Shown: positions 16,333 through 58,057, counted from the whole stretch's first letter. The stretch is 63,973 nt of DNA, filler included, from Licmophora abbreviata (GCA_900291995.1; 17 parts of 17 records of this genome joined end to end with filler, not necessarily neighbours in it), one strand, 5' to 3'. A program made the numbers and translations. Notes: a model not told the origin generated them from the sequence alone.

Positions 16333-18554
16333 ATGATGAAATCTCGTCCTGCGTGTATTGCTGTCGGCCTTCTCTCTGTTTTCGTGACGGGAATCCATGG
16401 CGGTAGCGTAAGTCGATGAGCCCGCTTGAAACCGGCGAATGTGTGATGACAATGCATTGACTTGCACTAGACTTACCATTTCCTCTTCTTCTTCACATAG
16501 CTGCGTTCAATCAGTACGCGAGAGCTCTCGCGAGGTGTCACTTGTCATGTCCTTCAGGTGTTTGCTCGAAATGCCAATGGCGAGAATTTCTTGCACGAGT
16601 GTGCTCCAATTGATGAGAATGGGGAGGAGTCAAGTCTGACGTTTCCTATTCCGGAGAAGCTCCTCTCTACCATTGTGCTTCCATTGGATGATGGTCATAT
16701 CTTCGCTCGCATTTCAAATGCTTTCATTGAGTACGAAGACGGCGACGTACCAGATCTGGTTACCACCGATTCGTCTTCGCTTCGCCTCGTTGACCAGCCC
16801 GACGGCTACAGTCGTCGGCTTGCAACCCTCAACCAATCAGGGCCGAAGGAGGTCTTGGTTCTTCGCGTGCAGACTGTTGATGCCAGGAACAGTCTCGGCG
16901 CCTCCATCCTCAGACAGCGCATCTTTGATGGTCCTATTCTTAATGTCAAGCAACTGTACAGCGATTGCTCGCACGGCCAGCTCAACCTTCAAAAAGCTGT
17001 TGGTACTGGAATTTCCGGAGGAGTGGTCGAGGTCTTTGTCGATACGGCTGTTACTGGTGCAAACGTCAACGCAGCCTTTGAAAATAAAATTACTCTCGAG
17101 GCNGAAAAATTGGTGGGCAGGTCGATGAGTTCATTCGACCACGTTATCTACTGTATTCCACCTGGTTCCTCGGGCGCTCTTGGTTATACCGGTCCCTGGA
17201 TTGCCTATGGCTACTACAACAATTGGAAGACAGTATTCAACGACCAGATCTGTGGCTCGCTGACTACGGTGGCTCATGAAATGGGCCATAACTATGGTTT
17301 GGGCCACTCCGGTCAAGATCGACCACCGACAAACCCGACAACAGGTTTTGATTCCTATGGAGACCAGAGTGGTTTGATGGGCTACTCCTATCCGCAAGCC
17401 GGTGGGCCTCAGATGTGCTTCAACGGTGCCAAGCATGTAAGTGAAATGGGACGCGTCGGAGATAGAGTTGTTCGAAATTCATGCGCGCACTCATCCGTTT
17501 CACTTCGACGCTTCCTTCAACAGTGGGATCTTGGATGGTACAGTGACCGCTCCGCTGAAATATACCCCGGAGACGGGCCCTGGACGGGGCGGTTGGACGC
17601 TTTTGCTGACTACTCGAACCCGTGCTAGCAATTTGGTTCTCATCAAGTCTTCAGACGATACGTACGTCCAGTACAACAGACAGAAAGGCATCAATATTGG
17701 GACGAGGGAGGCTCAGAACAAAGTTACCATCACCCAGTTTTTCTTTGATCAGAGAGGGACGAGGGCTTCAAGGAAGCTGGCCGACCTTGATTTGGCTCAA
17801 CCAACATACCAACAATCTAACACTGTCTTTCAACTGTGCTCCCAAGCGACAGACGCCAACTCGGTCGACTATGTGGAACTGAGCATCTACTTGGCTGGAC
17901 AGGCTGCAGCTGCATGTACAAGCTCCACTCCCGCACCGACGCCTAACCCGACACCAAGCCCGACACCCAATCCGACGCGTAGACCGACGCCCAGTCCGAC
18001 ACCAAATCCGACGCGTAGACCGACTCCCAGTCCGACACCCAATCCGACACCCAGTCCGACGCGCAATCCGACACCCAATCCGACGCCCAGTCCGACGCGT
18101 AGACCGACGCCCAGTCCGACNNNNNNNNNNNNNNNNNNNNNNNNNNNNNNNNNNNNNNNNNNNNTTAATTAATTAANNNNNNNNNNNNNNNNNNNNNNNN
18201 NNNNNNNNNNNNNNNNNNNNCAACGGGAATGGAGAGTTTTGCGACGATGACCCGGACGCCAAAGTTTGGATCGCGTCCATCGGTGCAAGCAAGAAATGTG
18301 TCTGGCTCAAGAACCGAGAGCATGAGATCCCCGCGGCCTGTTCCGATTCCAACTCCGGCGCCCAGACTTATTGTCGTGAGACGTGCCGTGTGTGCACTGA
18401 TGATTGCGTCGATACCAACGCGGCATTCCTGGTCGACAACAAGCCCTACAAGTGTGACTGGCTTGAGCTCCGGCCGACTGAGATTGCTAAGCTTTGCAAA
18501 CCGGACCTCCCAGCGTGGGATGTCTGTCCCGAGACTTGCAATGCCTGTGACTAG
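16333..18554 (+). CDS. Secreted peptidase M11 (gametolysin-like) metalloprotease with Pro/Thr stalk and Cys-rich C-terminal repeats; frameshift near 17620, crosses gap
   Basis: Signal-peptide exon [17 protein letters not shown].., [12 protein letters not shown] zinc motif, and YGDQSGLMG Met-turn. Introns at about 16408-16500 and 17437-17523. PTPxPT repeats follow, and after the gap two C..W..C..CxxxC repeats end in CPETCNACD*. Confidence 0.82.
17929..18120 (+). repeat. 12-bp-unit tandem repeats encoding a [12 protein letters not shown] mucin-like stalk
   Basis: Repeated ccgacNcccaNN units run into the gap. Confidence 0.9.
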
Positions 18555-23148: not shown

Positions 23149-24360
23149 CTAGTCACGTCGTGATGTTTTCGTCTCTTGATCGTCGTCGCCGACTGTACTC
23201 AAGAAGACTTGCTCCATCCGCGCTGCAAGGTTTGGTACAAGTTTCCTTTGAACGCAAGCGACATTCGACCAATATCGACCTGCGTAATGATCCAGCCAGC
23301 ACGACGTTATCCTCCATAGTTTTTCTCTACCTGCCCAGTAACACGTGAAGTCTTTTCTATCGAGATAGTCCACCGCATCCGCAAGTTTCTGCTTGGCCCA
23401 GTGACCGCTCCAGTTGTACTCGAACTCAAGATACTCCACTCTAGCAAGCGTTTCGGGCCCACCGAGTAGTACATCGAAATCGAAACCCTCCACGTCAATA
23501 AGAAGCACGTTGATTCGTCGTCCTCCATGATCGGCGCCACTAAGATGCCGCTTGGCGTACTCATCCAACGTCAAGAGGTCCACATCATCATAGTTGTCGA
23601 CGCCTCGAACCCTGTTGTTCTCCAGCCCCCTATTTTCCGTCCCAATTTTGATATCCTGGAACCCTCGATTGTGCACAGGCACAGAGGGAAACTGGACACT
23701 TCCAATCTCATTTGCCATGGCCGCTTGGACCAGCCGGAAGCCCTTCGAGTCATATCCCGTCGCGTTGGCAGCACCCCTCAGCGCTTGTACGGTCAACGGC
23801 ATTGGCTCGATACAGTGAACTTCACCCTGTATTGCGCTGGCAGCAGCATTCGAAATGGGTACATCCGACTCAGACTCTTGGTCGCAAACACCCGGTTGTA
23901 AGTTTGCGCCGAGTTGAGCCCTCCAAGTCTCTTTCCGAATCTCGGTTTGGCGTGTTCCCATTCGCAAGAGATTGAGAGCGTCAAAGCCTTTGTTACACCC
24001 GACGTTGATGGCAGTAAAGTAATCCCTCCGAAAGGTCGTCGTCATCGTTGTATCGTAGTAGTAGTCCTTCAGCCAAGTGGACTCGGGACATTTGGTTTCC
24101 TGCGTGATGCTACACCCTTGCTCCCAGGGTGACTTGAAACAGTATTTGCTGGGAGGCAGCTGCCGACGTACCGCTTCTAACTGAGCATCAGTACAGTTCG
24201 TTGGAGGATGGCGAAGAGGAGGAGGAAAGAGGGTCTCCTGGTATTCTTCTGCGGATGAGTCTGAGGCATCCGAAAGACGCGCGAGGAATGCCCGATCGGA
24301 GTAGAAGGATACGAGGGCGACGCCCGTCATTGCAAGTCCCATTACACTATTCCGACGCAT
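23149..24360 (-). CDS. FkbM-family (Methyltransf_21) methyltransferase, type II membrane
   Basis: N-terminal anchor, INVGCNKG, HCIEP, LTLDEY, LLIDVEGFDFDVL and YLEFEY. Confidence 0.8.
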   Translation of the reverse strand: MRRNSVMGLAMTGVALVSFYSDRAFLARLSDASDSSAEEYQETLFPPPLRHPPTNCTDAQLEAVRRQLPPSKYCFKSPWEQGCSITQETKCPESTWLKDYYYDTTMTTTFRRDYFTAINVGCNKGFDALNLLRMGTRQTEIRKETWRAQLGANLQPGVCDQESESDVPISNAAASAIQGEVHCIEPMPLTVQALRGAANATGYDSKGFRLVQAAMANEIGSVQFPSVPVHNRGFQDIKIGTENRGLENNRVRGVDNYDDVDLLTLDEYAKRHLSGADHGGRRINVLLIDVEGFDFDVLLGGPETLARVEYLEFEYNWSGHWAKQKLADAVDYLDRKDFTCYWAGREKLWRITSCWLDHYAGRYWSNVACVQRKLVPNLAARMEQVFLSTVGDDDQETKTSRRD

Positions 24361-24572
24361 TTCCGACGACTTTGCTTATGATAGACAATGAGTCTACAGA
24401 TCTTCTGTCCTCCACCTTGGATCATTGTTATCGCGAAGAGGCTTTGTTGAATGCCTGTGTGTGATGTTGATGNNNNNNNNNNNNNNNNNNNNNNNNNNNN
24501 NNNNNNNNNNNNNNNNTTAATTAATTAANNNNNNNNNNNNNNNNNNNNNNNNNNNNNNNNNNNNNNNNNNNN

Positions 24573-26431: not shown

Positions 26432-26732
26432 ATTTTTGATTGATGCAGCGCTCAAGCCAAAACTTCAGATTTCCCACGGCGAGGAGCTGGCTGCACTAAG
26501 AATGTACTTGTAGTTGAAAGCAAACAGGATTGTCGTTTTGTGCATGCATGTACCGGTAGCAGCCCAAGACAACAAACACCAAGCGAATGGATTACAAAGG
26601 GCCAACACATCGTATGCGAAAAGATGATGGATGAACACAGATGAAGATGCTCCTTCATGAGTACGAGCTCGCGAGCTACCGTAGTATCGAGGGGTACGCA
26701 CGTGACGATCAAAATCGCGGCCTCACTTTTTG

Positions 26733-27845
26733 ATGGAATCATTCATCTTGACCATGATGATGGCGACTTATTGTACCGTGTGGCCCTTTCTCGTTGTCTT
26801 GGCATTGTCATCGAGCCTTTGTTCCTCGTTTACATCAACCAGAATCGCTCAGACCAACCATCAACGATGCCGTCATGATGAAATTCTATCCCGCTTGGAC
26901 ATGATTTCCTTTGGTGCTGGTGGATCGTCGTCGGTGTCTTTTCCACGCGACGTCAAGGAAGCGATAAGCAAGTGTCGCGCTGCGGTTCAAGAAGCCTTGG
27001 GGAGTCGTTTGTCTCGCATGGATGTAGAGTTCCCCGTCGGGACCAAATTTGGAGTGGAAAAACAAAAAGGAAGAAAGAAAGCTGCTGCGGCAGCAGATGG
27101 TGACGACGGGGCGCCTACCCGTGAGCTCTTGGATTCATCCGACCGAGAACTTGCGCGATTGTTTGTAGAAATGTTCCAACCCGTTGGAGGTGAGAACATT
27201 GCGACGGTTTTTATTGACGAGACACGGGCCGATCAGGCTCGCAAGAGCTGGAAAGGCGACCCTAGCGCGTCTTGTCGTATACTTTCCATGGGGCGAAGAC
27301 GTGGCCGCCGGAGTGGTACACAGGGAATGGGCGGTGCCAAGAAACAGAAACGGAAACCAATGGGGTTTGCTGCCAAGATGGCTGTGGAGGTAGATGGGAG
27401 CGAAGGCGGAGCGTTTGAACTTCCCGATTGTATCGAGGTGGCATTGTTTGTAGCTCCTGGACCCAAAGAGCTTATCGTCGTCGACGAGATTTGCTCTACC
27501 GTGGGTATGGGGACGCTGGTAGTGCTACTCAACGCGCGTCTGTCCAAGATCTCAAACTTTGGGAGCGACGCTGCGGCGAGGCTGTATCGGGAGGAGTTCG
27601 AACCGGTATTTCATTTAGGCGCTGCGCCTCAAAATGTCGCACCGGGTCTTCTGCTTTACCGGCAGTACCCCGGCGACTGGATGGTCGCCCGCAAACTCGG
27701 CGTAGGCAAGCCGAAGCTCCTTGCGAAACAAACCCAACGTCCCACCGCAGACGCCTGCCGAAACATATACGAGAGCATCGAGTTGAGTGATATAGAAAAA
27801 GGAGTCGAGGGAATTGTCGAAAATGTAGCGGGTTGGTTCAACTGA
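26733..27845 (+). CDS. DUF1995 family plastid protein
   Basis: Signal plus SS-F motif, SRMDVEFP, VVLLNARL and LLYRQYPGDWMV. Confidence 0.75.
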   Translation: MESFILTMMMATYCTVWPFLVVLALSSSLCSSFTSTRIAQTNHQRCRHDEILSRLDMISFGAGGSSSVSFPRDVKEAISKCRAAVQEALGSRLSRMDVEFPVGTKFGVEKQKGRKKAAAAADGDDGAPTRELLDSSDRELARLFVEMFQPVGGENIATVFIDETRADQARKSWKGDPSASCRILSMGRRRGRRSGTQGMGGAKKQKRKPMGFAAKMAVEVDGSEGGAFELPDCIEVALFVAPGPKELIVVDEICSTVGMGTLVVLLNARLSKISNFGSDAAARLYREEFEPVFHLGAAPQNVAPGLLLYRQYPGDWMVARKLGVGKPKLLAKQTQRPTADACRNIYESIELSDIEKGVEGIVENVAGWFN

Positions 27846-28216: not shown

Positions 28217-30757
28217 CTAGCTTTGGTAATGGCCTTTTCCTCCGCTGGATCCTTTCTTTCCTCCGCTGGATCCTTTCTTTCCTCCGCTGGATCCCTTCTT
28301 TCCTCCGCTGGATCCCTTCTTTCCTCCGCTGGATCCCTTCTTTCCTCCGCTGGATCCCTTCTTTCCACCGCTGGATCCCTTCTTTCCACCGCTGGATCCC
28401 TTCTTTCCACCGCTGGATCCCTTCTTTCCTCCACTGGATCCCTTCTTGCCGCCCGGACTCGGGCCAGGCGATCCTTTCTTGCCGCCTGGACCCGGGCCAG
28501 GCGATCCTTTCTTGCCTCCTGGACCAGGGCCAGGCGATCCTTTCTTGCCTCCTGGTCCTGACTTGGAGCCAGGGCCGGACTTGGAGCCCGGACCGGACTT
28601 GGAGCCAGGGCCTGACTTGGAGCCCGGACCGGACTTCGAGCCTGGACCTGATTTCGATCCAGGGCCGGACTTGGAGCCGGGGCCTGACTTGGAACCTGGA
28701 CCTGACTTAGATCCCGGTCCTGACTTGGAGCCAGGGCCGGACTTAGAACCTGGTCCTGACTTGGAGCCCGGACCGGACTTAGATCCGGGGCCGGACTTCG
28801 AGCCTGGGCCTGATTTCGATCCAGGGCCTGACTTGGAACCGGGGCCTGACTTAGATCCAGGACCGGACTTGGAACCTGGACCTGACTTAGATCCCGGACC
28901 TGACTTGGAACCCGGGCCTGACTTGGAACCTGGACCCGACTTGGAGCCTGGACCGGACTTGTAGCTCGGACCTGACTTGGAACCTGGACCGGACTTGTAG
29001 CTCGGACCTGACTTCGACCCAGGGCCTGACTTGGAACCCGGACCTGACTTTGAGCCGGGGCCTGACTTGGAACCTGGACCGGACTTGGAGCCTGGACCGG
29101 ACTTCGATCCAGGGCCTGACTTGGAACCTGGACCGGACTTGTAGCTCGGACCTGACTTCGATCCAGGGCCTGACTTGGAGCCCGGACCGGACTTGGAGCC
29201 GGATTTTGATCCTGGACCGGACTTGGAGCCGGGGCCAGATTTCGACCCGCCGCACGAGCAGTAGTGCTGGCACTTTCCGTCGTAACATCTCCAGCCGCAA
29301 CAATCATCGCTGCCACCTTTAGAGCCCTTGGACCCTGGAGAGCCTTTCTTGCCTCCAGGAGATTTACTGGAGCTTGAACCCGGACCGGAAGCATCTTCAC
29401 AAGAGCACCAGCAGGTGCAGTCATCCGAGGAGTCGTCACAATGACAGTCGCATTCGCAGTCGTCCCCACCACTTGACCCTTTCGATCCCTTCTTGCCACC
29501 CTTAGATCCCTTACTGCCTCCTTTCGAACCCTTCTTGCCTCCCTTGCCCTTGGACATCTTACTGCCTCCTTTCGATCCCTTCTTGCCTCCCTTGCCCTTG
29601 GACATCTTACTGCCTCCTTTCTTTCCTCCTTTCGAGCCCTTCTTGCCTACGGAGCTTGATCCCGGAGAGCCCTTCTTTCCTCCTGAGCCTGGTGCAGGTC
29701 CTGGAGAACCTTTTTTCCCTCCGGGACCGGACTTGGAGACTGAGCCTGATTTGGAACCAGGACCTGACTTAGATCCCGGGCCTGACTTGGAGCCTGGGCC
29801 GGACTTAGATCCCGGACCTGACTTGGAGCCGGGGCCTGATTTGGAACCTGGGCCGGACTTGTAGCCGGGGCCTGACTTGGAAGCAGGGCCAGACTTCGAG
29901 CCGGGGCCGGACTTGGAACCAGGGCCTGACTTGGAACCTGGACCTGACTTGGAGCCAGGGCCAGACTTAGATCCCGGGCCTGACTTGGAACCAGGGCCAG
30001 ACTTGGAGCCAGGGCCTGACTTGGAACCTGGACCTGACTTGGAACCAGGGCCAGACTTCGAGCCGNNNNNNNNNNNNNNNNNNNNNNNNNNNNNNNNNNN
30101 NNNNNNNNNTTAATTAATTAANNNNNNNNNNNNNNNNNNNNNNNNNNNNNNNNNNNNNNNNNNNNCCAGACTTGGAACCAGGGCCAGACTTGGAGCCGGG
30201 GCCTGACTTCGATCCAGAGCTTGGTCCGGGCGAACCTTTCTTGCCTCCGGGACTGTCGCAAGAGCAGTAGCATTCGCAGTAGTCATCACTGGAATCGCAT
30301 CCAGGTTCACACGTGCAGCAGGGCTCATCAGGACCGGATCCTGGCGAGCCTTTCTTGCCTCCAGAGCTCGGCGAGCTATATTCTCCTTTTTTTCCTCCCT
30401 TCTTGCCGCCCGATGATCCCTTCTTGCCGTCCGAGGATCCCTTCTTGCCGCCCGATGATCCCTTCTTGCCGCTCGATGATCCCTTCTTGCCGCTCGAGGA
30501 TCCCTTCTTCAGAGATCGATGTATCTCGTCGAACTGTGTCAACGCCGGAAAAGCGAGCAAAGGTGGTCGTTAGTAACGTCGGCAGTCGGCACCATGCATG
30601 GCGGGTAACGGAGAGCTCTTCATCTTACCTCGACGAGTGACCTAGGGTCGCCCCCAATCAGTTCTCTGTCACTCGAAACTTGTGATATTTCTCCGCTGGC
30701 AAGGCAGAACAACGCCAACACCAGCCATATGCTGGATGCCCATGAATATTGCCTCAT
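28217..30757 (-). CDS. Secreted Gly/Ser/Lys/Pro tandem-repeat protein with RXL motifs and Cys-rich modules (candidate cell-wall, biosilica or adhesive protein); crosses gap 30066-30165
   Basis: Exon 1 (30757-30629) reads MRQYSWASSIWLVLALFCLASG-EISQVSSDRELIGGDPRSLVE. A 95-nt GTAAG..CTAAC..CAG intron (30628-30534) leads to exon 2, FDEIHRSLKKGSS.., then GPGSKS and GGKKGSS arrays ending GHYQS*. Confidence 0.85.
28237..30500 (-). repeat. Coding tandem repeats: 18-bp (GPGSKS), 21-bp (GGKKGSS) and 48-bp (MSKGKGGKKGSKGGSK) units
   Basis: Arrays are directly visible, and variation between units is mostly synonymous in the minus-strand frame. Confidence 0.95.
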
Positions 30758-32392: not shown

Positions 32393-33739
32393 ATGTTACG
32401 GCGGCGCTGCTGCTGCTGCACCAGGCAGATTGTTCCGCAATGGCGTTTCACGATCATTGTGTTTGTATTGTCATTGGCTAAGGCGTGGACATCGCACTCT
32501 AACAACGATCGATATCGTGCTAGGCAGCTTCGATTCGCCTGCTTCTCACAAGGAAAGGCTGCGTCGCAGTATCATCGCTTCGACGACATCACTGAACGAC
32601 AAGCGGAGAAAGTCTTCTGGGACCGCCAATCATTCCGATGCTCCCAAGGAGTACTTGAGGAAGTTTTGCGACCCTCAGAACGCGACAGTGGACTGCCTCT
32701 TTTGGAACGATGTGGTACCTCTCAATCTGACGACGAATCTTCGCCGTTTTTGCGTTTGTTCTCGAGACTCTTCTGTCCGACTTCACCGGAGCCAAGAGAG
32801 GAGGAAGTCATGACCTCAAACGTAATCGCCCGCAGAAAACATAGCTTCCGTCTAGAAATCGCATATCGGGGCGCTGATTTCTGTGGGTGGCAAACCCAAC
32901 CAACAATCATGAGCGACCGTCGGTTCAGAAGTCGCTCGAAGATTGGCTTGAGCCACTCGCGAGCGATAACAAGGCTGTCAACTTGCGTGTCTCTGGACGC
33001 ACCGATGCTGGTGTCAGTGCGATTGGGCAGGTTTGTCGATTTCGCACGCGTCAAGCGACGTTGACTGCGAATGAGATACTGGNNNNNNNNNNNNNNNNNN
33101 NNNNNNNNNNNNNNNNNNNNNNNNNNTTAATTAATTAANNNNNNNNNNNNNNNNNNNNNNNNNNNNNNNNNNNNNNNNNNNNCGCGTCAAGCGACGTTGA
33201 CTGCGAATGAGATACTGGATCGAGTGAATGACTCTCCGTTGGTCAGGGCGGGTTCATTGCGATGTTTGTCCGTACGCCGCGTGTCAGAACGCTTCCACCC
33301 CACTTTTGATGCAAAAGCTCGTGCCTATGTTTATATGCTGGATGCTGGGTGTATTGCACAAGACGACATAGGTTGCTTGGATGCGATGCTTCGATCTTTG
33401 GAGGGACGCGAGATGGACTATGTAGGAATGTCGTACGGGAGGGTGAAGAGTTCGACGACGCTATGCACAATCAAATTGGCTAGAGCAGATCTTGTAAGAT
33501 TGTCGTCAAATGGACGCTTGGCCGTTTGCATCCAGTTGGTAGGGGACCGATTCCTACGACGCATGGTACGAATTCTTGTCGCCACCGCGTTGCGCGAGGT
33601 ACGACGAAACGCAACAACGGATCGAGCGCTGCTTGACATCATTGAGAAGCGAAACCGATCTCATAGCGCAGGAGCTGCTCCCCCAAATGGACTCATGTTT
33701 GTTGCGGCTTCGTTTGAGGTTGGTCATGAGCAAGCATAG
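32393..33739 (+). CDS. TruA-family tRNA pseudouridine synthase (frameshift near 32900; gap with duplicated overlap)
   Basis: RLEIAYRGADFCGWQ, then in another frame SGRTDAGVSAIGQV. After the gap come FHPTFDA..RAYVY, GDRFLRRMVRILV and APPNGL. Confidence 0.85.
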
Positions 33740-34170
33740 GCTCGTTGCCGTTAGGAAAAATAGCCGCTGCGCTGAAGGCCTGGTTGGCCAGATGACTCAC
33801 TTTTCTGCGGTAGCTTGTTACCAATAGTACTCTGCGATTTGATCTAATTCATAAATCTACCTAAGTTCTTCCGTCTCGTCACACCCACAGTAAGTTTTCC
33901 CTCCCATTCTGACTTGACATAAATGAGCTTCAAACGCAAGTAGTATGCTTGCGAAATTGTATCCTTCATCTTCGGGAGGACTCTTTGTTCTCCTGCGAGC
34001 GACGAGTTTTGCGCGACACAAGTCGAGTGAGTCACACGCGATGCGATGTGTGTGTGTGTGCAGGTGTGCTGGTGTGATGCTGAGATGATGCTGAAAGTCT
34101 GAGTCCATCACTGCAGCTTGCGTCCCGTCTTTCCTGTTCTCCTTATAAGGCGTACATTTCAGTGCCAGAC

Positions 34171-35517
34171 ATGTCAAATTCGATTCCTCGCCTGAGTAAC
34201 TTGTGGGGAAGGGGCCATGAGACCTTTCCGTCGACACTACGACGCATCGTATCGGTCAAGGGCGCGGGTGCGACAACGTACTTGCAAGGATTGGTCACAA
34301 GCGACCTGACAGTCGATCCGAATCCTCCCAAAGATCACCACAACACGTTCCAGTCACCGAAAGATATCGAAGAGGGACACACTCTTGAATTCTCCAAGAA
34401 TCTTCGATCCACGTGTTTTCTAGATCACAAAGGTCGCATCGTCAGTGATGGCTTGCTGTGGAAGAAGGACGAGAACGAGTACTTTCTGGATGTGCCGGGC
34501 GACACTGCCGATTCATTGCTGTCGCTCCTCAAAAAGTACAAGCTGAGACGGAGCGAAGTAACGATTACTGCCGAAGATAATATGAACTCTCATGTTGTCT
34601 ACGGTACACTGAATACGCAGGGGACACCGGAAGGCTATCTTGCCGCTCTCGACCCTCGTCACCCTACTCTTGGTATGCGAGTCTTGTCGCTGGACGATCA
34701 AAGTGGCCTTAACTTCCCAAAGCTAATGTCGGATATGTTTCCATCCAAGCCGGGAAGCTATGAAGTTGTGCGAAAGCTGTCCGGCATTGCGGAAGGCTCT
34801 GAGATTCAAGGACGAACGGCACTCGAGTGCAACCAGGAATTTCTGAATGCCGTGTCGTTTAGCAAGGGATGTTATCTTGGACAGGAACTAACAGCTCGGA
34901 CAATGTTTACTGGAGCGATACGAAAACGTGTTATGCCAGTCCTTTTGGTGGATACCAACACGGAGGTACCGCGACCATGGATCATGGCGAGTCTGCTCCA
35001 AGGGGGACGACAAGACGTGTCTCTACCCGAGGAAGATGCAGCTGCTGGAGGGAGACTACTGACCCGGTTGCCGTTGTTAGGTGCACCGACTGCTGGTATT
35101 GCGGTTGCCATGCTTATGGGCTCGATTAAAGGCCACGCTGGCGAAGAGACACAAGAGTCTGACGAACTGAAAGCTATTCAGCAGTCTTCCACAGAACTAC
35201 TCGGGCAGCTCTCGGGTCTCGCCATTCCAGGAACAAAAATTGTGGACGACAGCGACGGTAAAGCAATTGGTATGATTGTTTCTACCCCAGCGCCAGGGAC
35301 AAACGCTGTCCTGGCCCAAATGAGGTTGGATCGCGTAGGACTTGCCGAGGGCGGAGAGTGGAAACATACAAATCGAGTACGTTTGGGTGACGACAAACGC
35401 GAGTTTCGGTATCTCCCGTACGTTCCTCTTTGGTGGCCTGAGGTCGACCCTGCTACTGGCAAAGCCAAGGAAGTAGGAGACGGAAAGATAGATGGAGAAG
35501 AGGCAAGCGATGGCTAA
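34171..35517 (+). CDS. IBA57: IBA57/CAF17 (YgfZ family) mitochondrial Fe-S assembly protein
   Basis: YLQGLVTSD, FLDHKGRI and the signature KGCYLGQELTAR. Confidence 0.9.
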   Translation: MSNSIPRLSNLWGRGHETFPSTLRRIVSVKGAGATTYLQGLVTSDLTVDPNPPKDHHNTFQSPKDIEEGHTLEFSKNLRSTCFLDHKGRIVSDGLLWKKDENEYFLDVPGDTADSLLSLLKKYKLRRSEVTITAEDNMNSHVVYGTLNTQGTPEGYLAALDPRHPTLGMRVLSLDDQSGLNFPKLMSDMFPSKPGSYEVVRKLSGIAEGSEIQGRTALECNQEFLNAVSFSKGCYLGQELTARTMFTGAIRKRVMPVLLVDTNTEVPRPWIMASLLQGGRQDVSLPEEDAAAGGRLLTRLPLLGAPTAGIAVAMLMGSIKGHAGEETQESDELKAIQQSSTELLGQLSGLAIPGTKIVDDSDGKAIGMIVSTPAPGTNAVLAQMRLDRVGLAEGGEWKHTNRVRLGDDKREFRYLPYVPLWWPEVDPATGKAKEVGDGKIDGEEASDG

Positions 35518-48086: not shown

Positions 48087-50034
48087 GCCCGCAAGTGAGC
48101 CTCACGGCCTATGGCGAGGTGGTCGAGATCAGCGCCATCATCGGCCCGGCAGCCGGACGGGTGTGGATCTGGTCTGGGGCCGGTCGGCGCTTTATGCGCA
48201 TATCGGGCTGGATCTGACCGGGCCGAATGGCGGGATCGTGCGGATCGACGATATCGAGATCGAGGATGTCACCGGGGTCTTTCTGCGCGACATGCTGAGC
48301 GTGGTGGATGTGCGCGATTACGGTGCGGTGGGCGACGGGACGAGCGATGACAGCGCCGCCTTCGAGGCCGCCGACGCCGACGCACAGGGCCGCGAGGTGC
48401 TGGTGCCTGCGGGCATTTACCGACTGGCCGAGAGCGTGACCTTTCAATCCCGTGTCCAGTTCGAGGGCCGGGTCGAGATGCCCGAGGACAAGATCCTGGC
48501 CCTGACCAAGAATTTCGATCTGCCCAGCTATATCGACGCCTTTGGCGATGATGAGGAGCTGGCCTTCAAGAAGGCGTTTCAGGCGCTTTTGAACACGGCC
48601 GGGCACGAGTCGCTTGATCTGGGCGGGCGGCTTTTGGGCCTCCGCGCACCGATCGACATGCAGGCGGCGGTGGCCAACCGGACCTTCTATAATCAGCGGC
48701 GGGTGATCCGGAACGGCCAGTTTTCGGTGTTTTCCGGCCCGGCATGGGATACCGAGGTCGTTACCTCGCAGGCACGCTATGCGCCGGCCGATCCCAAGCG
48801 GCTGACGAATGTGCAGAACGTGGCCAGCATCCCGGTGGGCGCGTTGATCGAGGGCAATGGCGTGGGGCGCGAAGTCTATGTGCGGGCGCGCAACATCGCA
48901 GCACAGACCCTTGAGATCAGCGCGCCGCTTTATGACGCGGACGGCGCACAGGTGTTCACCTTCCGGCGGTTCAAATACATCCTCGATTTCAGCGGCTTCG
49001 ACGATCTGGGGCGGATGACCCTGTCGGATATCGAGTTTCAGTGCAGCGGCGAATGCAGCGCCATCCTGTTGCCGCCGCAGGGCAGCGGCTTTGCGCTGCG
49101 CGATTGCTTCATCACCCGGCCCAAGGATCGCGGCATCTCGAGCCATGGCGAGGGCTGTCAGGGCATGTTGATCGACCGGTGCCAGTTCCTGTCGAACGAA
49201 AGCCCGCTTGCGTCGCTCGAGCGGCAGTCCATCGGGCTGAACACCAACGCCAATGACGTGAAACTGCGCAACAACCGCGCGGTGCATTTCCGGCATTTCG
49301 CGGTGATTGGCGGATCGAGCAGCCTCATCCTTGGCAATCACTGGTTCCAGGGCGACACGCTGCAAAATTCCCCCCGGCTGGCGGGGCTGGTGCTGACGCG
49401 GACCAACAACCGTGGCACAGTGACCGGCAACTATGTGGACAACAGCTTTATCGAATGGGGCAATGAACACGATCAGGCGCCGGAATTCGCCTCGGAATTC
49501 TCGTTCAGCCAGCTGACCATCAGCGGCAACACCTTTCTGGCGAGCCAAGTGCCGCCGTGGTTCAGTTATCTTGTCATCAAGCCCTATGGCGCGGGGCATT
49601 TCCTGAACGGGCTGACGGTGACGGGCAATTCCTTCCGCATCATCGGCACGCCGGTGGACCGGGTGGAAAGCGTGGACACGAGCTTTGCCAGTCTGGACTA
49701 CAACCGCTTCGCAAATGTCACGTTCCGCGACAACATGTTCAACAATGTGAACAGCCCCTCGGCCAGCCCGGTGACGATTGAGCATACCGAAGCCAGCGCG
49801 TCGCAGGCCTGGGTGGTGGCGGCGGATGCCAAGCTGCCGTTCAACGGCTGGGCGCAGGTGGTCGAGGCGGTGACCGCCGCAGGGCCGTTGCGCCGGGCGG
49901 ACGGGTCGATCTATTACGGCGCGCCCTATTATCAGGCCAAGCAGGGGCCGAACAACGATCAGGTGACCCTGAGATGGGAAACCCCGGTGCAAGGCACGGC
50001 GATGGTGACGGTGCGGATCGACGATCCGTTCTGA
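48087..50034 (+). CDS. Pectate_lyase_3/GH28-related right-handed beta-helix protein (5' partial)
   Basis: VDVRDYGAVGDGTSDDSAAFEAA motif and Asn-rich beta-helix repeats (LILGNHW, TVTGNY, TISGNTF, TVTGNSF). Confidence 0.8.
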
Positions 50035-50153
50035 GCCGCGTCAGAAGCTGTGCNNNNNNNNNNNNNNNNNNNNNNNNNNNNNNNNNNNNNNNNNNNNTTA
50101 ATTAATTAANNNNNNNNNNNNNNNNNNNNNNNNNNNNNNNNNNNNNNNNNNNN

Positions 50154-50791
50154 CGATTTTCGCCGCGATCGCAGAGCTGCCCACAAGCCCCGCCGTCACC
50201 CCGATTTCGAGGTGGCGGCCGGGGGGCGGCGGGGATCACCCAGGAGGGCGCGATCTTGAGATATTCGTCGCCATAGGCGGGGACGCCTGCCTGAAGCTGG
50301 ACAATCGCGCGGGTCTTGCGCCATGTCTCGATCCCGAGGGTCAGATCGGTTTCGAAATCGGCGTCGTAATCCCCGTGCAGCACATCCTGAAAGATCACCG
50401 CACGGGTATCGAGCGTGATCCAGCCGGGCCGCCCCGACAGGCTGAAGCCACGCCCGAAGGACAGGCCGGGCCGGATGACCGGCTGATCCGCCACGAGGCC
50501 CACGCCCAACTCGACCGCCAGCCGCATGCCGCCCGGTGCCTGCCCGAAGGGCAGCCGCGCGAACACGACGGTTTTTTGCATCTCCTGCCGGGTGGCCCCC
50601 ATGTCGAGACCAAAGGTCAGGCGGTCATTCAGCCCATGTTCGGCATAGAGGCTGAACACGCCATCGCCCTGCACAAGCGGCGCTTCGAGCGAGGCCGCGA
50701 GGAACGTCTCGCCCTCGGCGCGCGGCCAAGGTCCAGCCTGAGCCTGAACGGCCAGCCAAAGCACAAGATTTGCCACCACCAGCATCCGCAT
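50154..50791 (-). CDS. Hypothetical exported beta-strand-rich (outer-membrane-like) protein; 3' partial, frameshift at G6 run 50221-50226
   Basis: Signal peptide AQA-GPWPR and amphipathic strands (LYAEHGL, LAVELGVG, WITLDTR). RBS GGAGG upstream. Confidence 0.65.
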
Positions 50792-50826
50792 CGCCGGACC
50801 TCCGGCGGCAAGGATGGTTCATCTTG

Positions 50827-50842
50827 GTAAACGATGGGTTAA
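50827..50842 (-). promoter_or_regulatory. CtrA-like binding site (TTAA-N7-TTTAC, 1 mismatch)
   Basis: Minus strand TTAACCCATCGTTTAC, 36 bp upstream of the 50791 start. Confidence 0.55.
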
Positions 50843-50915
50843 CGCGAGGGGATCGGGAAAGAATTTGCCCCCGGCGCAGGGCATGGTAGGATGGGGTATC
50901 AGACGGAGGCACGCC

Positions 50916-51236
50916 ATGCCGAAGATCGAACAGACCGCAGACTGCCAGACGGTGATCACCACCTTCGAGATGTCGCCGGGCACCTGTCAGGATCTGCTGG
51001 ATGAATTGACCGAAGCCTATGAGCAGTTCATCTCGAAGCAGAAGGGCTTCATCGCGGCGGGGCTGCATGTGAACGATGCGCAGACCCGGATCGCCAATTA
51101 TTCGCAATGGGAGCGCCGCGAGGATTTCCTGGCCATGCTGCGCAGCGACGAGATGCGCCGCCGCAACCGGCGGATCAACGAATTGTGCCGCAGCTTCGAG
51201 CCGGTGATGTATGATGTGGCGGCGACATTCGGGTGA
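50916..51236 (+). CDS. Antibiotic biosynthesis monooxygenase (ABM) family protein
   Basis: RBS GGAGG and KGFIAAGLH..RIANYSQWE. Confidence 0.8.
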   Translation: MPKIEQTADCQTVITTFEMSPGTCQDLLDELTEAYEQFISKQKGFIAAGLHVNDAQTRIANYSQWERREDFLAMLRSDEMRRRNRRINELCRSFEPVMYDVAATFG

Positions 51237-51556
51237 GGGACCGCGATCAAGGTCAGGAGAGCGTCCAAGACGACGCGGCGGAGATGGCGCAGCAGATGCG
51301 CGCGCTGCGCGATGAGGTCCACCAGTTGAACGCGCATCGCTTCGTGCGCATCCACAATTCGATCCCGCGGCTCTTGGCCTTCAATTTCGCGCGCGGGCTG
51401 GCCTTTGGGCTTGGCACGGTGCTGGGGGCGTCGGTGCTGTTGTCGGCGGTGGCCTGGTCGCTGTCGCAGGTGGAATTCCTGCCGATCATCGGGGAATGGG
51501 TGTCGCAGATCGCGCGACAGATGGAAGATGCCGCCGGACAATCGGGCGCGCGCTGA
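51233..51556 (+). CDS. DUF5665 family small membrane protein
   Basis: FNFARGLAFGLGTVLGAS..LPIIGEWV; GTGA start overlaps the upstream stop. Confidence 0.75.
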   Translation: MRDRDQGQESVQDDAAEMAQQMRALRDEVHQLNAHRFVRIHNSIPRLLAFNFARGLAFGLGTVLGASVLLSAVAWSLSQVEFLPIIGEWVSQIARQMEDAAGQSGAR

Positions 51557-51636
51557 TGCGCGCGGGCTGACCTGTGTCAATGTCGGGACCGCGCCGACCT
51601 GACAGAGTGGGACCGAACCGAAAGCAGGAGGACCCC

Positions 51637-52044
51637 ATGTACAAGAACATTCTGGTGCCGATTTCGTTTGATGAGGACCGCGATGCGGCGGGCGCGATCG
51701 ACGTAGCCCGCACGCTGGCTGGCAAGGACGGCAAGATCAAGCTGATCCACGTGATAGAAGACATTCCCGGCTATGCGATCACCTATGTGCCCAACACCTA
51801 CCTTGTCGAAAGCCGTCAGGCGATCGAGGCCGAGTTGGCTGAGATGGCGGCAGAGCTGGAGAACGGCGCGTTCGAGGTGATCAGCGGCCATTCGGGGCGT
51901 ACAATCGTGGATTACGCCGACAAGGACGGCGCCGATTGCATCGTGATCGCCAGCCACCGGCCCGGAATGTCGAACCTGATTCTTGGCAGCACGGCGACAC
52001 AGGTGGTGCGCCATGCCAATTGCGCGGTGCATGTGATCCGCTAG
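51637..52044 (+). CDS. Universal stress protein (UspA family)
   Basis: MYKNILVP, ADCIVIASH and LILGSTATQVVRHANCAVHVIR; RBS AGGAGG. Confidence 0.92.
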   Translation: MYKNILVPISFDEDRDAAGAIDVARTLAGKDGKIKLIHVIEDIPGYAITYVPNTYLVESRQAIEAELAEMAAELENGAFEVISGHSGRTIVDYADKDGADCIVIASHRPGMSNLILGSTATQVVRHANCAVHVIR

Positions 52045-52074
52045 GGTCCGTTCGGCACGGGAGCAGCCAGGATC

Positions 52075-52263
52075 ATGTCCGGTCTGTTTCCGCAGTTGCT
52101 GTTGGTGGGCGTGGCGATTGCCGCGAACAATCTGGCGGTGTCGCTGGCGTTGGGTTCGGTGGCGCCCAAAACGGTTTGGCCGCGCGTGCTGATGGTGTTC
52201 GCCCTGTTCGAATTCGGCGTGCCCTTGGCGGGCGCGTGGCTCGGCAGGCATCTGGCGGGGGTG
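52075..52263 (+). CDS. MntP-family manganese efflux pump (3' partial)
   Basis: VAIAANNLAVSLALG..FALFEFGVPLAGAWLG. Confidence 0.65.
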
Positions 52264-52363
52264 NNNNNNNNNNNNNNNNNNNNNNNNNNNNNNNNNNNNN
52301 NNNNNNNTTAATTAATTAANNNNNNNNNNNNNNNNNNNNNNNNNNNNNNNNNNNNNNNNNNNN

Positions 52364-52437
52364 CGGACCGGATTTTCTATTATCGCGGCGGGATGCAAAG
52401 CTGGCGGGTGCTGGGCCTTTCGGTCACAGGGGGCTGA
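52364..52437 (+). CDS. C-terminal fragment of a rhodanese-like protein
   Basis: DRIFYYRGGMQSWRVLGLSV matches the rhodanese C-terminal GG..W motif. Confidence 0.6.
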
Positions 52438-52508
52438 TCGCCTCTTGAGAGCGGCCAGCGGCGACACCACATGGAAAGCGTCTTTGGTTCAATGAGGAGA
52501 TGACGCGA

Positions 52509-52763
52509 ATGCAGTGCCCGATCGACGGAGAACAGCTTGTGATGACCGACCGTGCGGGGGTCGAGATCGATTATTGCCCGAAATGCCGCGGTGTGTGGCT
52601 GGACCGGGGGGAGTTGGACAAGATCATCGAGCAATCCGCGCCGCGCGGCGGCGGATCGGCTGGTGGATCGGGAGGTGGTCGGGACCGCGGCTATGCGCCC
52701 GAGCCGCAGGACCACAGACGCAAGAAGCGCGGCGGGTTTCTGGAAGAGCTGTTCGACTTCTGA
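52509..52763 (+). CDS. zf-TFIIB Zn-ribbon domain protein
   Basis: MQCPID..EIDYCPKCRGVWLDRGELDKII..FLEELFDF. Confidence 0.88.
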   Translation: MQCPIDGEQLVMTDRAGVEIDYCPKCRGVWLDRGELDKIIEQSAPRGGGSAGGSGGGRDRGYAPEPQDHRRKKRGGFLEELFDF

Positions 52764-52767
52764 TCGG

Positions 52768-52980
52768 TCAGCGGCTCAACACCGTCCGGACCAGCGCGAT
52801 CAGCGCGGACAGCACGACCGAGACGAGGATCGCGCTGGTCACGGGAATATAGAGCCGCAGGCTGCCGCGCTCGATGACGATATCGCCGGGAAGCCGGCCC
52901 AGACCGAGACGCGACAGCAGCCCCCAAAGCAGGCCGATGACGACCAGCACCAAGCCGGCAAGGATCAGGTAACGCGCCAT
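52768..52980 (-). CDS. DUF2905 family small membrane protein
   Basis: LGRLPGDIVIER..YIPVTSAILVSVVLS. Confidence 0.85.
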   Translation of the reverse strand: MARYLILAGLVLVVIGLLWGLLSRLGLGRLPGDIVIERGSLRLYIPVTSAILVSVVLSALIALVRTVLSR

Positions 52981-53029
52981 GGGGCGAGGTTACGCGATTT
53001 GGCCGGGACTTTACAGGGGATTTGCGGCC

Positions 53030-53353
53030 TCAGGGCGCGCCAGCGGCTGCGTCCGGGTGGGCGAAATCTTGAAAAGATTTCCGCCCGATTTCTTTTGAAG
53101 AAATCGGGGGCGGGGTGAGCCAGCGCAGGGGCGCCCGGTTGCAGAAAATCACCAATTGGCCGGAGTTTTCCACAACCTGATATCCCCGACGCTGGATTTC
53201 GCGCATGAACGCATCCATCCCGGCGAAGCGTTCCACATCCCGAGCCTTGCGCCGGATGACGGTACCTTGCTGGACCGCCTTGGAGGCGAAGAGATCATTG
53301 AGCCAGATTTCGGGCGAAAGGGGAGAATTTCGGGTCTGCATGGCCGCCAGCAT
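53030..53353 (-). CDS. Conserved small Rhodobacteraceae hypothetical protein
   Basis: WLNDLFASKAVQQGTVIRRKARDVER..RRGYQVVENSGQLVIFCN. Confidence 0.7.
   Translation of the reverse strand: MLAAMQTRNSPLSPEIWLNDLFASKAVQQGTVIRRKARDVERFAGMDAFMREIQRRGYQVVENSGQLVIFCNRAPLRWLTPPPISSKEIGRKSFQDFAHPDAAAGAP
53063..53106. repeat. Double-hairpin palindromic element inside the 3' end of a CDS
   Basis: GAAATCTT-GAA-AAGATTTC and CGATTTCTT-TTG-AAGAAATCG. Confidence 0.75.
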
Positions 53354-53365
53354 GGCCCAAACATG

Positions 53366-53381
53366 GTTAAGACCGGGTTAA
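53366..53381 (-). promoter_or_regulatory. Perfect CtrA binding site TTAA-N7-TTAAC
   Basis: Minus strand TTAACCCGGTCTTAAC, between the uvrB stop and the next gene. Confidence 0.75.
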
Positions 53382-53388
53382 AGCCGGA

Positions 53389-55562
53389 TCACCGCCCCCG
53401 CCGTTTGACATTCCCGCCGCGCTGGCCCGGCCGGCCTGCGGTGGAGCGGCCCTTGGCCTTTGTCGCCTCTTCTGACGCCTTTTCGACCGCCTGCTGGCGC
53501 GCCAGAGGATCGTCCTGAATGGCCAGATCGACCGCTTCGAGGCGCTTGACCTCGTCGCGCAGGCGGGCGGCCTCTTCGAATTCGAGGTTCTCGGCCGCCT
53601 TGCGCATCTCGGCGCGCAGCCCGTCGAGATGAGCCTGAAGGTTGGAGCCGACCATCGGCGTGTCGACCGTGGCGGTCACCCGGTTCATATCCACATCGCC
53701 CTTATAGAGACCGGCCAGGATATCCTCGACATTCTTGCGGACGGTGGCGGGGGTGATGCCATGTTCCTCGTTATAGGCGATCTGCTTGGCGCGGCGGCGG
53801 TCGGTTTCATCGAGCGCGCGCTGCATCGAACCGGTGATCCGGTCGGCATACATGATGACCCGGCCATCGGCGTTGCGCGCGGCGCGGCCAATCGTCTGGA
53901 TCAGCGAGGTTTCCGAGCGCAGGAACCCTTCCTTGTCGGCGTCCAGAATGGCGACAAGCCCGCATTCGGGAATATCCAGCCCCTCGCGCAAGAGGTTGAT
54001 GCCGATCAGCACATCGAAGGCGCCAAGGCGCAGATCGCGCAGGATCTCGATCCGTTCGATCGTGTCGATGTCCGAATGCATGTAGCGCACGCGGATGCCC
54101 TGTTCATGCAGGTATTCGGTCAGATCCTCGGCCATGCGTTTGGTCAGGGTCGTGCACAAGGTCCGGTAGCCCGCCGCCGAGACGCGGCGCACCTCGTCCA
54201 GCAGGTCGTCGACCTGCATCTCGACGGGGCGGATCTCGATCTGCGGATCGAGAAGCCCGGTGGGGCGGATCACCTGTTCGGTGAAGACACCGCCGGTCTG
54301 CTCGATTTCCCATTTCGCGGGGGTGGCGGAGACGAACACCGATTGCGGGCGCATGGCGTCCCATTCCTCGAACTTGAGGGGGCGGTTGTCCATGCAGGAG
54401 GGCAGCCGGAAGCCATGTTCGGCCAGGGTGAANNNNNNNNNNNNNNNNNNNNNNNNNNNNNNNNNNNNNNNNNNNNTTAATTAATTAANNNNNNNNNNNN
54501 NNNNNNNNNNNNNNNNNNNNNNNNNNNNNNNNCGCGACCGGTCAGGTAGCGCGAATAATTCTCGATCCCGTTGCAGACGCCGGTGGCCTCGAGCATTTCG
54601 AGATCGAAGCTGGTGCGCTGCTCGAGGCGCTGCGCCTCGAGCAGCTTGCCTTCGTTCACCAGTTGATCGAGCCGCTGGCGCAGCTCCTTGCGGATACCGA
54701 TCATGGCCTGCTGCATCGTCGGCTTGGGCGTCACGTAATGCGAATTGGCATAGACGCGGATCTGCTCGAAACTGTCGGTCTTTTCGCCGGTGAGGGGGTC
54801 GAATTCGGTGATCGCTTCCAGCTCTTCGCCGAAGAAGCTGAGTTTCCAAGCGCGGTCATCGAGGTGGGCGGGCCAGATTTCGAGGCTGTCACCGCGCACC
54901 CGGAAGCTGCCGCGTTGAAAGCCCGCATCGTTGCGGCGGTATTGCTGGGCCACCAGATCGGCCATCACCTTGCGCTGGTCATACTCGGTGCCGACCTTCA
55001 GATCCTGGGTCATCGCGCCATAGGTTTCGACCGAGCCGATGCCGTAGATGCACGAGACCGAGGCCACGATGATGACATCGTCACGTTCCAGAAGCGCCCT
55101 TGTGGCCGAGTGGCGCATCCGGTCGATCTGTTCGTTGATCTGGCTTTCCTTCTCGATATAGGTGTCCGAGCGCGCGACATAGGCTTCGGGCTGGTAGTAG
55201 TCGTAATAGCTGACGAAATATTCCACGGCATTGTTGGGAAAGAAGCCCTTGAACTCGCCATAAAGCTGGGCCGCCAGCGTCTTGTTGGGGGCGAGGATGA
55301 TGGCCGGGCGCTGCGTTTCCTCGATCACCTTGGCCATTGTGTAGGTTTTGCCGGTGCCGGTGGCGCCCAAAAGCACCTGGTTGCGTTCACCGTCGCGCAC
55401 CCCGGCACTGAGTTCGGCAATCGCGGTGGGCTGATCGCCGGCGGGCTGAAATTCGGTGACCATCTCGAAGCGCCGCCCGCCTTCGAGCTTGTCGCGGACC
55501 GCGATATCGGGGGCGGGCGAATGCAGCAGGGCTTCGGTCTTGTCAGAATGAGCGTAGGGCAT
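53389..55562 (-). CDS. uvrB: Excinuclease ABC subunit B (split by gap 54433-54532)
   Basis: [45 protein letters not shown] and a C-terminal UVR domain. Confidence 0.97.
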
Positions 55563-55616
55563 CGGATATCCGTTCTGTGATCTGCACCTAGAGTTGTCCT
55601 CTTTGGGCCGAGGTTC

Positions 55617-55682
55617 AAGGGGGGCGCGGCCCCCCTCGCCGCAAGGCGGCGAGTCCCCCCGGGATATTTGAGGCCAGAAGAA
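55617..55682. repeat. REP-like intergenic palindromic element
   Basis: Adjacent hairpins GGGGG-CGCGG-CCCCC and CTCGCCGC-AAG-GCGGCGAG, followed by CCCCCCGGGATATTTGAGGCCAGAAG. Confidence 0.6.
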
Positions 55683-55808
55683 ACCCCGGGACCGGTAATG
55701 GAGGCGGTCATGGGGCGCGGGCCTGCGCGCATTTGATCCCTTGCCCAAGGCCCGTGTTTTTGGAATAACGGCGAGGTTACCAGAAGTGCCGGATCAGGAG
55801 TGCAGTCA

Positions 55809-56120
55809 ATGTCCGCCCGCATCTATCAGCCGTCGCGCAGCACGACGCAATCGGGGACCGCCCGCAGCAATCATTGGGTTCTGGAATATTTTCCCGAAAC
55901 CCCGCGCGAGGTGGATCCGCTGATGGGCTGGACCAGTTCGAACGATACCCAGGCACAGGTCAGGCTGAAGTTTCCGACCAAGGAGGCGGCGCTGGATTAT
56001 GCAAGCGAGCACGGCATCGACGCTGTTGTTCTGGAGCCGCACAAGCGCAAGCCCAATATCCGCCCCGGCGGCTATGGCGAGAATTTCGCGACCAACCGGC
56101 GCGCCACCTGGACGCATTGA
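55809..56120 (+). CDS. ETC complex I subunit (NDUFS4-like)
   Basis: [32 protein letters not shown]. Confidence 0.9.
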
Positions 56121-56220
56121 GGCCATCGCGGCTGGGGGCACGCCCGGCGCTTGATGCGGATCAAGGCGCGCGGGCGCATATTCGGATAAGCTTTCACGGA
56201 TCGCAGTGAAGGAGATCCCC

Positions 56221-57192: not shown

Positions 57193-57269
57193 TCCGGGAT
57201 CGGCAAGCCTGCGCCCAAGCCGTGCGACACTGCTTGCCGTGAGGGCGGCGAGCACCTAAGACTTTGGGC

Positions 57270-57902: not shown

Positions 57903-58057
57903 GCACGGCCCTTGCCCTGCTGGCGCTGGCGGTCTGGCTTTGGGGCATGGGCGGCGCGCAGGACGTGGCGCGATGGGCCGCAGCGGGCCAGCGCGAGGTG
58001 CAAGACGCGATGGCGGGATATCTGCGGGGCCTGCGCGCGGGCGAGCCGAGCGCGCTT
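57884..58057 (+). CDS. Nickel/cobalt transporter (NicO/RcnA-like), 5' fragment
   Basis: TM helix then W...[13 protein letters not shown]; overlaps DUF1007 as in the usual gene pair. Confidence 0.6.

Follow-up and report, generated by a model that had tools for sequence, protein, structure and literature searches.

The question raised by the gene treated here is what purpose may be served by an apparently secreted protein that is built largely from two short repeats, GPGSKS and GGKKGSS. The gene lies on the minus strand (30757-28217) of a stretch of 63,973 nucleotides, the whole of which was analysed and is called the window, and it is modelled as a single-copy gene with two exons, comprising 780 sequenced codons and a stop (28217-28219) and encoding a protein of at least about 770 amino acids. 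A sequence-only reading had proposed a secreted structural protein of a diatom, in which an RxL pro-region precedes Lys/Ser-rich repeats, and this proposal is supported by the sequence together with published screening criteria. The gene encodes a real, selected and probably secreted diatom repeat protein. The function that we favor, with a probability of roughly one half, is that of a silaffin-like, uncut scaffold in the organic matrix of the silica wall, with disulfide-locked nodes along its chain.

The repeats could be maintained as DNA or as peptide, and these cases can be told apart by the pattern of differences between units. When the 54 hexapeptide units after the assembly gap are compared with their consensus, there are 139 synonymous and 9 non-synonymous differences (about 0.48 and 0.013 per site), where the units were chosen by their peptide and the counts refer to copies, not to events. 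In the contiguous block 28559-29188, for which no such choice was made, 6 of 210 residues differ in the frame of the gene, while the other five frames, four of which contain stops, show between 23 and 90 changed residues out of about 205. From the minimum of residue differences in this frame it follows that selection acts on the GPGSKS peptide, as had been suggested from the largely synonymous repeat variation. The antisense frame, which reads PGPDLE, was considered as a protein in its own right and rejected as a shadow, since at best 23 of its 204 residues are changed and it has three stops.

The gene is interrupted by a gap, and it must be asked whether the two sides belong together. When the 29.2 Mb assembly was searched with DNA patterns for the two repeats, the hexapeptide gave 51 matches and the heptad 11, every one of them on the two contigs that flank the gap (C3494 and C3495) and on one strand, with 0 matches for the reversed patterns used as controls. 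At their ends these contigs share an overlap of 33 bases in which 2 positions are mismatched, and cysteine modules 1 and 2, which lie on opposite sides of the gap, can be aligned with common cysteines and flanks. As neither repeat is found in any other contig, the two halves very likely form a single locus. Linker joins are not trustworthy by default, because the same 100-base linker, present 16 times in the window, also joins bacterial-like DNA into the scaffold at 48087-58057. That region of about 10 kb has a GC content of 63%, contains long open frames that match PPK2, UvrB and DUF1007 as well as a pectate-lyase-like frame, and apparently consists of bacterial contigs brought into the diatom scaffold by the linker; it could pass for horizontal transfer. 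Another contig, C1021 (L002), likewise looks bacterial.

The signal-peptide exon of the sequence-only reading is consistent with hydropathy and with the splice signals present. Exon 1 starts with an ATG at 30757, with an in-frame stop 20 codons upstream, and has a hydrophobic core, with hydropathy over 11 residues reaching 2.9 at residue 10, within a signal-like segment of approximately residues 1-22, the cleavage site being judged by eye. If the predicted intron is read without splicing, the frame hits a stop two codons on. In the intron, TACTAAC is found at base 53 and there is also a pyrimidine tract; the acceptor is CAG, and among the many GT/AG pairs that leave the frame open only the chosen donor matches GTAAG. 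Exon 2 contributes 122 residues before the gap and 615 after it. From the sequence we infer that the gene is spliced and expressed. No 19-residue window beyond residue 30 has a hydropathy above -0.15, so that a membrane anchor is not predicted.

Three RxL motifs had been claimed to precede the repeats, and they are indeed found at residues 31, 39 and 49, after the signal-like segment. At least three such motifs appear in 38 of 200,000 shuffles of that 30-residue stretch, which was picked post hoc, and in 0 of 4946 windows of 21 residues from ten other open reading frames (ORFs) of the window. Past residue 51 there is no further RxL, and a single Arg in the rest of the chain. Because of this, the chain would stay uncut once the pro-region has been removed, and the earlier description of the protein as processed can therefore refer only to loss of the N-terminal pro-region.

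After the third RxL follow, in order, (S/G/D)GKKGSS heptads, cysteine module 1, a first GPGSKS block that spans the gap, GGKKGSP linkers, a lysine cluster, cysteine modules 2 and 3, a second GPGSKS block, 11-residue units, and GGKKGSS heptads (Table 1). There are 51 exact GPGSKS units, and 56 when single variants are counted, in keeping with the estimate of 55-60 in two blocks. The expectation of GGKKGSS heptads at both ends is correct for the C-terminus, with 10 exact copies that show 4 variants as DNA, whereas at the N-terminus one copy is exact and the rest are SGKKGSS, DGKKGSS or similar, making 11 exact copies in all. The KGKGGKKGSK motif that had been taken to mark a Lys cluster occurs twice, and the cluster is real. 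What the sequence-only reading had omitted are the three cysteine modules, the eight GGKKGSP linkers, and the joining of bacterial-like DNA by the assembly linker.

Past the last RxL, the 729 residues are 32% Gly, 28% Ser, 18.9% Lys, 11.2% Pro and 0.3% Thr, with one Arg. Tyr (1.4%) and Trp (0.3%) form no aromatic-rich block. Pro, Thr and Ser together make up 39.5%, or 71.5% with Gly, the calculated isoelectric point (pI) is 10.2, and the chain has no N-glycosylation site. The silaffin-like class is characterized by a Ser- and Lys-rich domain, with thresholds of 18% and 10%, and by these figures such a domain is present; all 35 of the 100-residue windows sampled contain at least 20 Ser and at least 11 Lys. 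Successive lysines are spaced by six residues 75 times, by one residue 30 times and by three residues 13 times. Of 138 lysines, 20 belong to K[SG][SG]K motifs, 11 of which occur in the protein and 9 of which are inside the lysine cluster. One pair of these motifs is 3 residues apart, five pairs adjoin or overlap, and the other four pairs are at least 8 residues apart; furthermore, four windows have five non-adjacent Lys within 12-14 residues, which is the looser wording of the pentalysine cluster.

The most unusual part of the protein is the cysteine modules, which hold 22 of its 23 cysteines and which all terminate in aromatic-C-S-C. In module 2 the cysteines have mirror symmetry in 4 of 4 pairs, as reached by 337 of 100,000 shuffles. 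From a two-row alignment, AlphaFold2 predicts module 2 as a two-stranded hairpin (strands 7-13 and 20-26) with a mean predicted local distance difference test score (pLDDT) of 74 and a predicted template-modelling score of 0.31. In this model the cysteines occupy alternate positions on both strands, an arrangement that fits a disulfide ladder. In Sin1, another RxL silica protein, all 18 luminal cysteines are in disulfides (PMC5525289), and since the GPGSKS protein, too, looks secreted, its module cysteines may by analogy be bonded in the same way. No match to the modules was found in the PDB, either by sequence or by Foldseek. The search for paralogues in the genome returned the modules themselves and one weak match (E = 1), rejected since it sits in a bacterial-like contig, and the cysteine DNA pattern was uninformative, with 794 matches against 753 in the control, swamped by microsatellites. 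Two other roles were set aside: that of an antimicrobial-peptide precursor, since the hairpins are acidic or neutral and have no flanking cleavage sites, and that of a metallothionein, since the protein appears to be secreted.

Table 1. Positions in the window of the GPGSKS gene, its parts and its neighbours
Feature	Position	Strand	Remarks
Whole gene model	28217..30757	-	Two exons, exon 2 interrupted by assembly gap
Exon 1, 43 amino acids (aa), signal-peptide-like segment and two RxL	30629..30757	-	Hydropathy and sequence reading
Predicted intron, 95 bases, phase 0	30534..30628	-	GTAAGA donor, TACTAAC branch motif, CAG acceptor
RxL motifs 1 and 2, in exon 1	30659-30667 and 30635-30643	-	
RxL motif 3, residues 49-51, directly ahead of first lysine repeat	30510..30518	-	
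N-terminal (S/G/D)GKKGSS heptads	30411..30509	-	
Cysteine module 1, 21 aa, 8 Cys, 5 acidic residues, GGKKGSP on its flanks	30258..30320	-	
GPGSKS block 1, with 2 sequenced units before gap and 17 after	29747..30203	-	
Assembly gap, fixed 100-base linker between G000 contigs C3494 and C3495	30066..30165	.	
Lysine cluster, 57 aa, 22 Lys, residues 306-362; candidate silica-targeting region	29477..29647	-	
Cysteine module 2, 20 aa, 8 Cys, 6 acidic residues, CxCxCxC-x6-CxCxCxC	29399..29458	-	
Cysteine module 3, 17 aa, 6 Cys, more divergent	29252..29302	-	
GPGSKS block 2, 37 units, three being GPSYKS	28559..29236	-	
Three 11-residue GGKKGSPGP(G/S)P units	28437..28555	-	
Ten C-terminal GGKKGSS heptads, nearly uniform as DNA	28244..28453	-	
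DUF1995 gene, converging on 3' end of GPGSKS gene	26706-27845	+	
tRNA pseudouridine synthase	33185-33739	+	
CAF17/GcvT-like	34084-35517	+	
FkbM methyltransferase	23149-24375	-	

That the protein may be part of the silica wall is suggested by several published rules. A signal followed by a short stretch ending in RxL is typical of biosilica-associated proteins (PMC4557024, PMC5647440, PMC5525289), and RxL has been described as exclusive to such proteins, with frustulins included among them (PMC5647440). One screen for silaffin-like proteins uses a signal peptide, repeated KXXK and RxL (PMC5501833); of these, RxL is present, KXXK is repeated by a narrow margin, and the signal is judged by hydropathy and the predicted intron. 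The lysine-enriched region of cingulins is defined by a pair of K(X)2K separated by no more than four residues (PMC9650480), and residues 306-362 conform to this definition, as well as to the weaker rule for silica targeting, which is two K..K within 10 residues (bioRxiv 10.1101/2021.09.18.460806).

To see how such a scaffold might work, consider the fate of the chain from its synthesis. It would enter the endoplasmic reticulum and lose its pro-region at RxL, and without further RxL cuts one long chain would be kept. The lysine cluster would route it to the silica deposition vesicle. Its serines would be phosphorylated or glycosylated and its lysines methylated or modified by polyamines, as in silaffins, which would make the chain zwitterionic. 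The GPG elements would keep the long blocks flexible and unfolded, and the acidic cysteine modules would be disulfide-locked hairpins that serve as nodes for the binding of polyamines, cations or other chains. In this way, the protein would serve to pattern or toughen silica more than to precipitate it in the manner of a small peptide.

A number of observations count against such a scaffold. The strict pentalysine pattern K..K..K.{1,2}K..K, which is found in 29% of silica proteins and 1.5% of the background (bioRxiv 10.1101/2021.09.18.460806), has 0 matches in the protein, and so has each of six silica-enriched motifs (KS.KS, GKS.K, SKS.K, S..SSKS, KSGK and KSSK); the targeting rules applied derive from centric diatoms. 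RxL is found also in the frustulins, which join the wall once silica has formed (PMC4557024). The mirror symmetry of modules 1 and 3 is within chance (24,665 and 74,800 of 100,000 shuffles), and the model of a 92-residue stretch with modules 2 and 3 gave hairpins at a mean pLDDT of 47, too low to use. Finally, adhesive-trail proteins are likewise built with cysteine modules that separate blocks of low complexity (bioRxiv 10.1101/2023.03.06.531300).

The strongest competitor of the silica scaffold is an extracellular adhesive or mucilage protein of mucin-like type, from a pad, stalk, chain junction or trail. Its Pro/Ser/Gly blocks would be hydroxylated and O-glycosylated, its lysines would bind anionic polysaccharide or surfaces, and its cysteine modules would serve either as cross-links between chains or as folded units that are sacrificed. 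This explanation is possible, if clearly less probable, and the cysteine modules raise its odds, since the same alternation of low-complexity blocks and cysteine modules has been described for CaFAP1, CaTrailin4 and Ca5609, and trail genes, like the present one, break assemblies within their repeats (bioRxiv 10.1101/2023.03.06.531300). The content of Pro, Thr, Ser and Gly is similar as well, at 69% in the adhesive of Craspedostauros australis and 71.5% here, and Lys/Gly-rich candidates for adhesion or cell-surface proteins are known in Amphora (PMC4220933). However, Thr accounts for 12% of the C. australis adhesive against 0.3% here, and the major residues listed for that adhesive exclude lysine. 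Furthermore, a scan of four parts of the gene revealed no Pfam domain, CAA and vWA included, and the three RxL with the KXXK cluster indicate the silica group, while RxL appears 0 times in the main text of the trail paper.

A bolder and more doubtful proposal combines the silaffin and adhesive toolkits. According to this, the protein would be a block-copolymer of a design not found in the literature searched, where long elastomeric polycation blocks, in which every sixth residue is a lysine, are tied at three points by cystine-ladder hairpins, and where spare cysteines form a disulfide network between chains. Under mirror pairing, module 1 leaves two spare cysteines. The silica wall, or else an attachment pad, would in this case have an elastic framework held together by cross-links, and a comparable logic is seen in the capsule proteins of cnidarians.

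It is rather improbable that the protein is instead a coat, added to the wall after silica in the manner of frustulins or pleuralins. In such a coat the acidic cysteine modules would be binding sites for Ca2+ or another metal, and the chain would grip the silica surface with its basic repeats, thereby protecting silica or sealing the girdle. Frustulins have acidic Cys-rich domains and RxL, and pleuralins have Pro/Ser/Cys/Asp domains (PMC4557024), to which the acidic, Cys-rich modules 1 and 2 can be likened. But the three modules are short, 17-21 residues against about 50 for ACR and about 90 for PSCD domains, and make up less than a tenth of a chain with pI 10.2; in addition, the blank homology searches gave no relative of any kind, frustulins and pleuralins not being directly aligned. 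Very unlikely is an artefact, in which the gap separates two different loci, the gene is not expressed, or exon 1 is wrong and the protein is not secreted. In its favor, the linker also joins bacterial-like DNA, the frame across the gap is unreadable and many other GT/AG pairs keep the frame open; against it, the repeats are confined to the two flanking contigs on the same strand, the contig ends overlap, the cysteine modules on both sides are related, the donor is the only GTAAG among the options with a branch motif at the expected distance, and the synonymous excess is strong.

No homologue was found in protein, Pfam or PDB searches. A word-based search of 5.8 billion proteins gave 0 hits among 409 candidates (lengths 338-1077) for modules 2-3, 0 among 8000 for the whole frame after the gap, and 0 among 521 (lengths 99-2000) for the alignment of modules 1 and 2. 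With phmmer, the 168-residue middle part had 0 matches among 1.84 billion representatives, two attempts with the ESM Atlas gave no usable match, and Pfam showed no family at E up to 1 in all four gene parts scanned, the gap being unread. All these blank searches are weakened by low complexity and by the shortness of the modules. The silica-associated proteins of three diatoms have very low mutual similarity and are grouped by short motifs only (bioRxiv 10.1101/2021.09.18.460806), and as absence of homology is usual among such proteins, the missing homologues add little. As exact words, GPGSKS, GGKKGSS and PGSKSG are absent from the literature searched, which leaves out most subscription journals, where much of the work on diatom walls has appeared; within the same scope no description of this protein design was found, in agreement with the statement that the repeat type is not recognized. 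GGKKGS or GKKGSS does occur in papers that by their titles deal with unrelated subjects.

A second precursor in the same genome runs across the end of contig C588 and the start of C589 (L048:1174-1716 and L050:1-227), and it, too, is split by a gap. It starts like a signal peptide and contains an acidic stretch and two RxL ahead of repeats of GPGGK, KGSK and GGHPG with 16 K..K motifs; it lacks cysteine modules and is of plainer silaffin design. PGPGGK and KGSKGGK are common to both genes. The PGPGGK pattern has 14 matches in the genome, 11 in the second gene, 2 in the GPGSKS gene and one at C1079:3063-3080 (L065) that is isolated and within the control rate. With this second GPG/KGSK precursor at hand, lysine repeats containing GPG look like this lineage's version of a silaffin-like design. 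The KSGKSGK pattern has two matches in the genome, and in each of them one or more of the Ser codons is replaced by a codon for Arg. A metagenome match to the hexapeptide pattern (L071:2480-2570), where five tandem 18-base units read KSGPGS, was rejected as convergent, since these units are inserted in a prokaryote-like ORF of high GC content that otherwise bears no resemblance to the gene.

The host is a diatom, as read from its silicon transporters (SITs), with 11 matches in the genome and a best score of 708 bits. These include a triplicated SIT on contig C845 (L036, L037), where three units with three CMLD motifs lie in one open frame of 1334 residues. It carries YQxDxVYL and DxDID linkers, reported for the concatenated SITs of Synedra (PMC6114903), and this suggests an araphid pennate. 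The 54 matches to light-harvesting proteins show an alga and do not narrow the group. Around the GPGSKS gene there is no sign of a cluster of wall genes, and the neighbours in Table 1 are ordinary and unrelated. Elsewhere in the window, at 16501-18120 on the plus strand, a frame for a gametolysin-like M11 metallopeptidase is followed, in another frame, by a Pro/Thr repeat of PTPSPT/PTRRPT type that runs into a gap at 18121; this is probably a secreted protease with a mucin-like stalk.

What could be learned from the protein depends on which of its features is considered. Diatoms are expected to have orphan Lys/Ser/Gly proteins that carry RxL, and if the present one is a further lineage-specific silaffin-like protein, then it is the expected kind of diatom gene. 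The six-residue lysine spacing and the cysteine hairpins are, in contrast, a real departure from the expected design. The cross-linking of insoluble wall matrices has been left as a hypothesis (PMC5525289), and a single protein in which a silica-type pro-region and a lysine cluster are combined with discrete cysteine modules offers a clean test of both targeting and insolubility. The rules for silica targeting that were applied here derive from centric diatoms and one protein from Cylindrotheca. With its fixed lysine spacing and without KXXK, the regular GPGSKS block would test whether lysine modification and silica patterning require that motif, and it also lends itself readily to the making of bio-inspired silica or glues.

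Among known systems, cystine-ladder hairpins are exemplified by the theta-defensins. As in these, the cysteines of module 2 are modelled to alternate on two facing hairpin strands, but the module is acidic, lies inside a long chain without flanking cleavage sites and would have four rungs, and the likeness is one of pattern only.

By the features tested, the GPGSKS protein does not belong to the Sil1-type silaffins, cingulins, frustulins or trailins; for the first two this follows from the failure of the strict pentalysine pattern and from the absence of internal RxL and of a W/Y region. With Sil1p of Cylindrotheca fusiformis it shares a signal peptide, as predicted here, an RxL pro-region and a basic, repetitive Lys/Ser/Gly region, but Sil1p has 265 aa and is cut at RRIL/RRNL after every repeat into short peptides (PMC4557024), whereas the present protein has at least about 770 aa, has no internal RxL, contains 11% Pro and three cysteine modules, and has one Lys per six residues in most of its repeats. 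The silaffin-like and KXXK proteins of Thalassiosira pseudonana show a signal peptide, here a predicted one, and share KXXK with X = S or G, RxL, low complexity and lack of homologues (PMC5501833; bioRxiv 10.1101/2021.09.18.460806); the difference is that here GPG hexapeptides and KK heptads dominate, and that the strict pentalysine and the six motifs are missing. Clustered K(S/G)(S/G)K and an uncut repetitive chain are shared with the cingulins CinW2 and CinY2 (PMC9650480, PMC4557024), in which nearly all lysines belong to K(X)nK motifs, as compared with 20 of 138 in K[SG][SG]K here, where a Trp- or Tyr-rich region is absent as well. From silicanins and SAPs the protein differs by having no transmembrane helix. 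Acidic, Cys-rich modules are common to it and to the frustulins (ACR) and pleuralins (PSCD), which are secreted wall proteins, with RxL in the frustulins (PMC4557024), but, compared by description and not by alignment, its modules do not reach half their size and account for little of a chain that is basic. In the trail proteins CaFAP1, CaTrailin4 and Ca5609 of C. australis, finally, which are secreted as this protein appears to be, low-complexity Pro/Ser/Gly blocks are broken by small Cys-rich modules (bioRxiv 10.1101/2023.03.06.531300). When the genome was searched for the CAA family there was no match, but the control was silent as well, so that the search is uninformative. In contrast to those trail proteins, the GPGSKS protein is almost free of Thr, has 19% Lys, starts with an RxL pro-region and has no CAA domain in the parts scanned.

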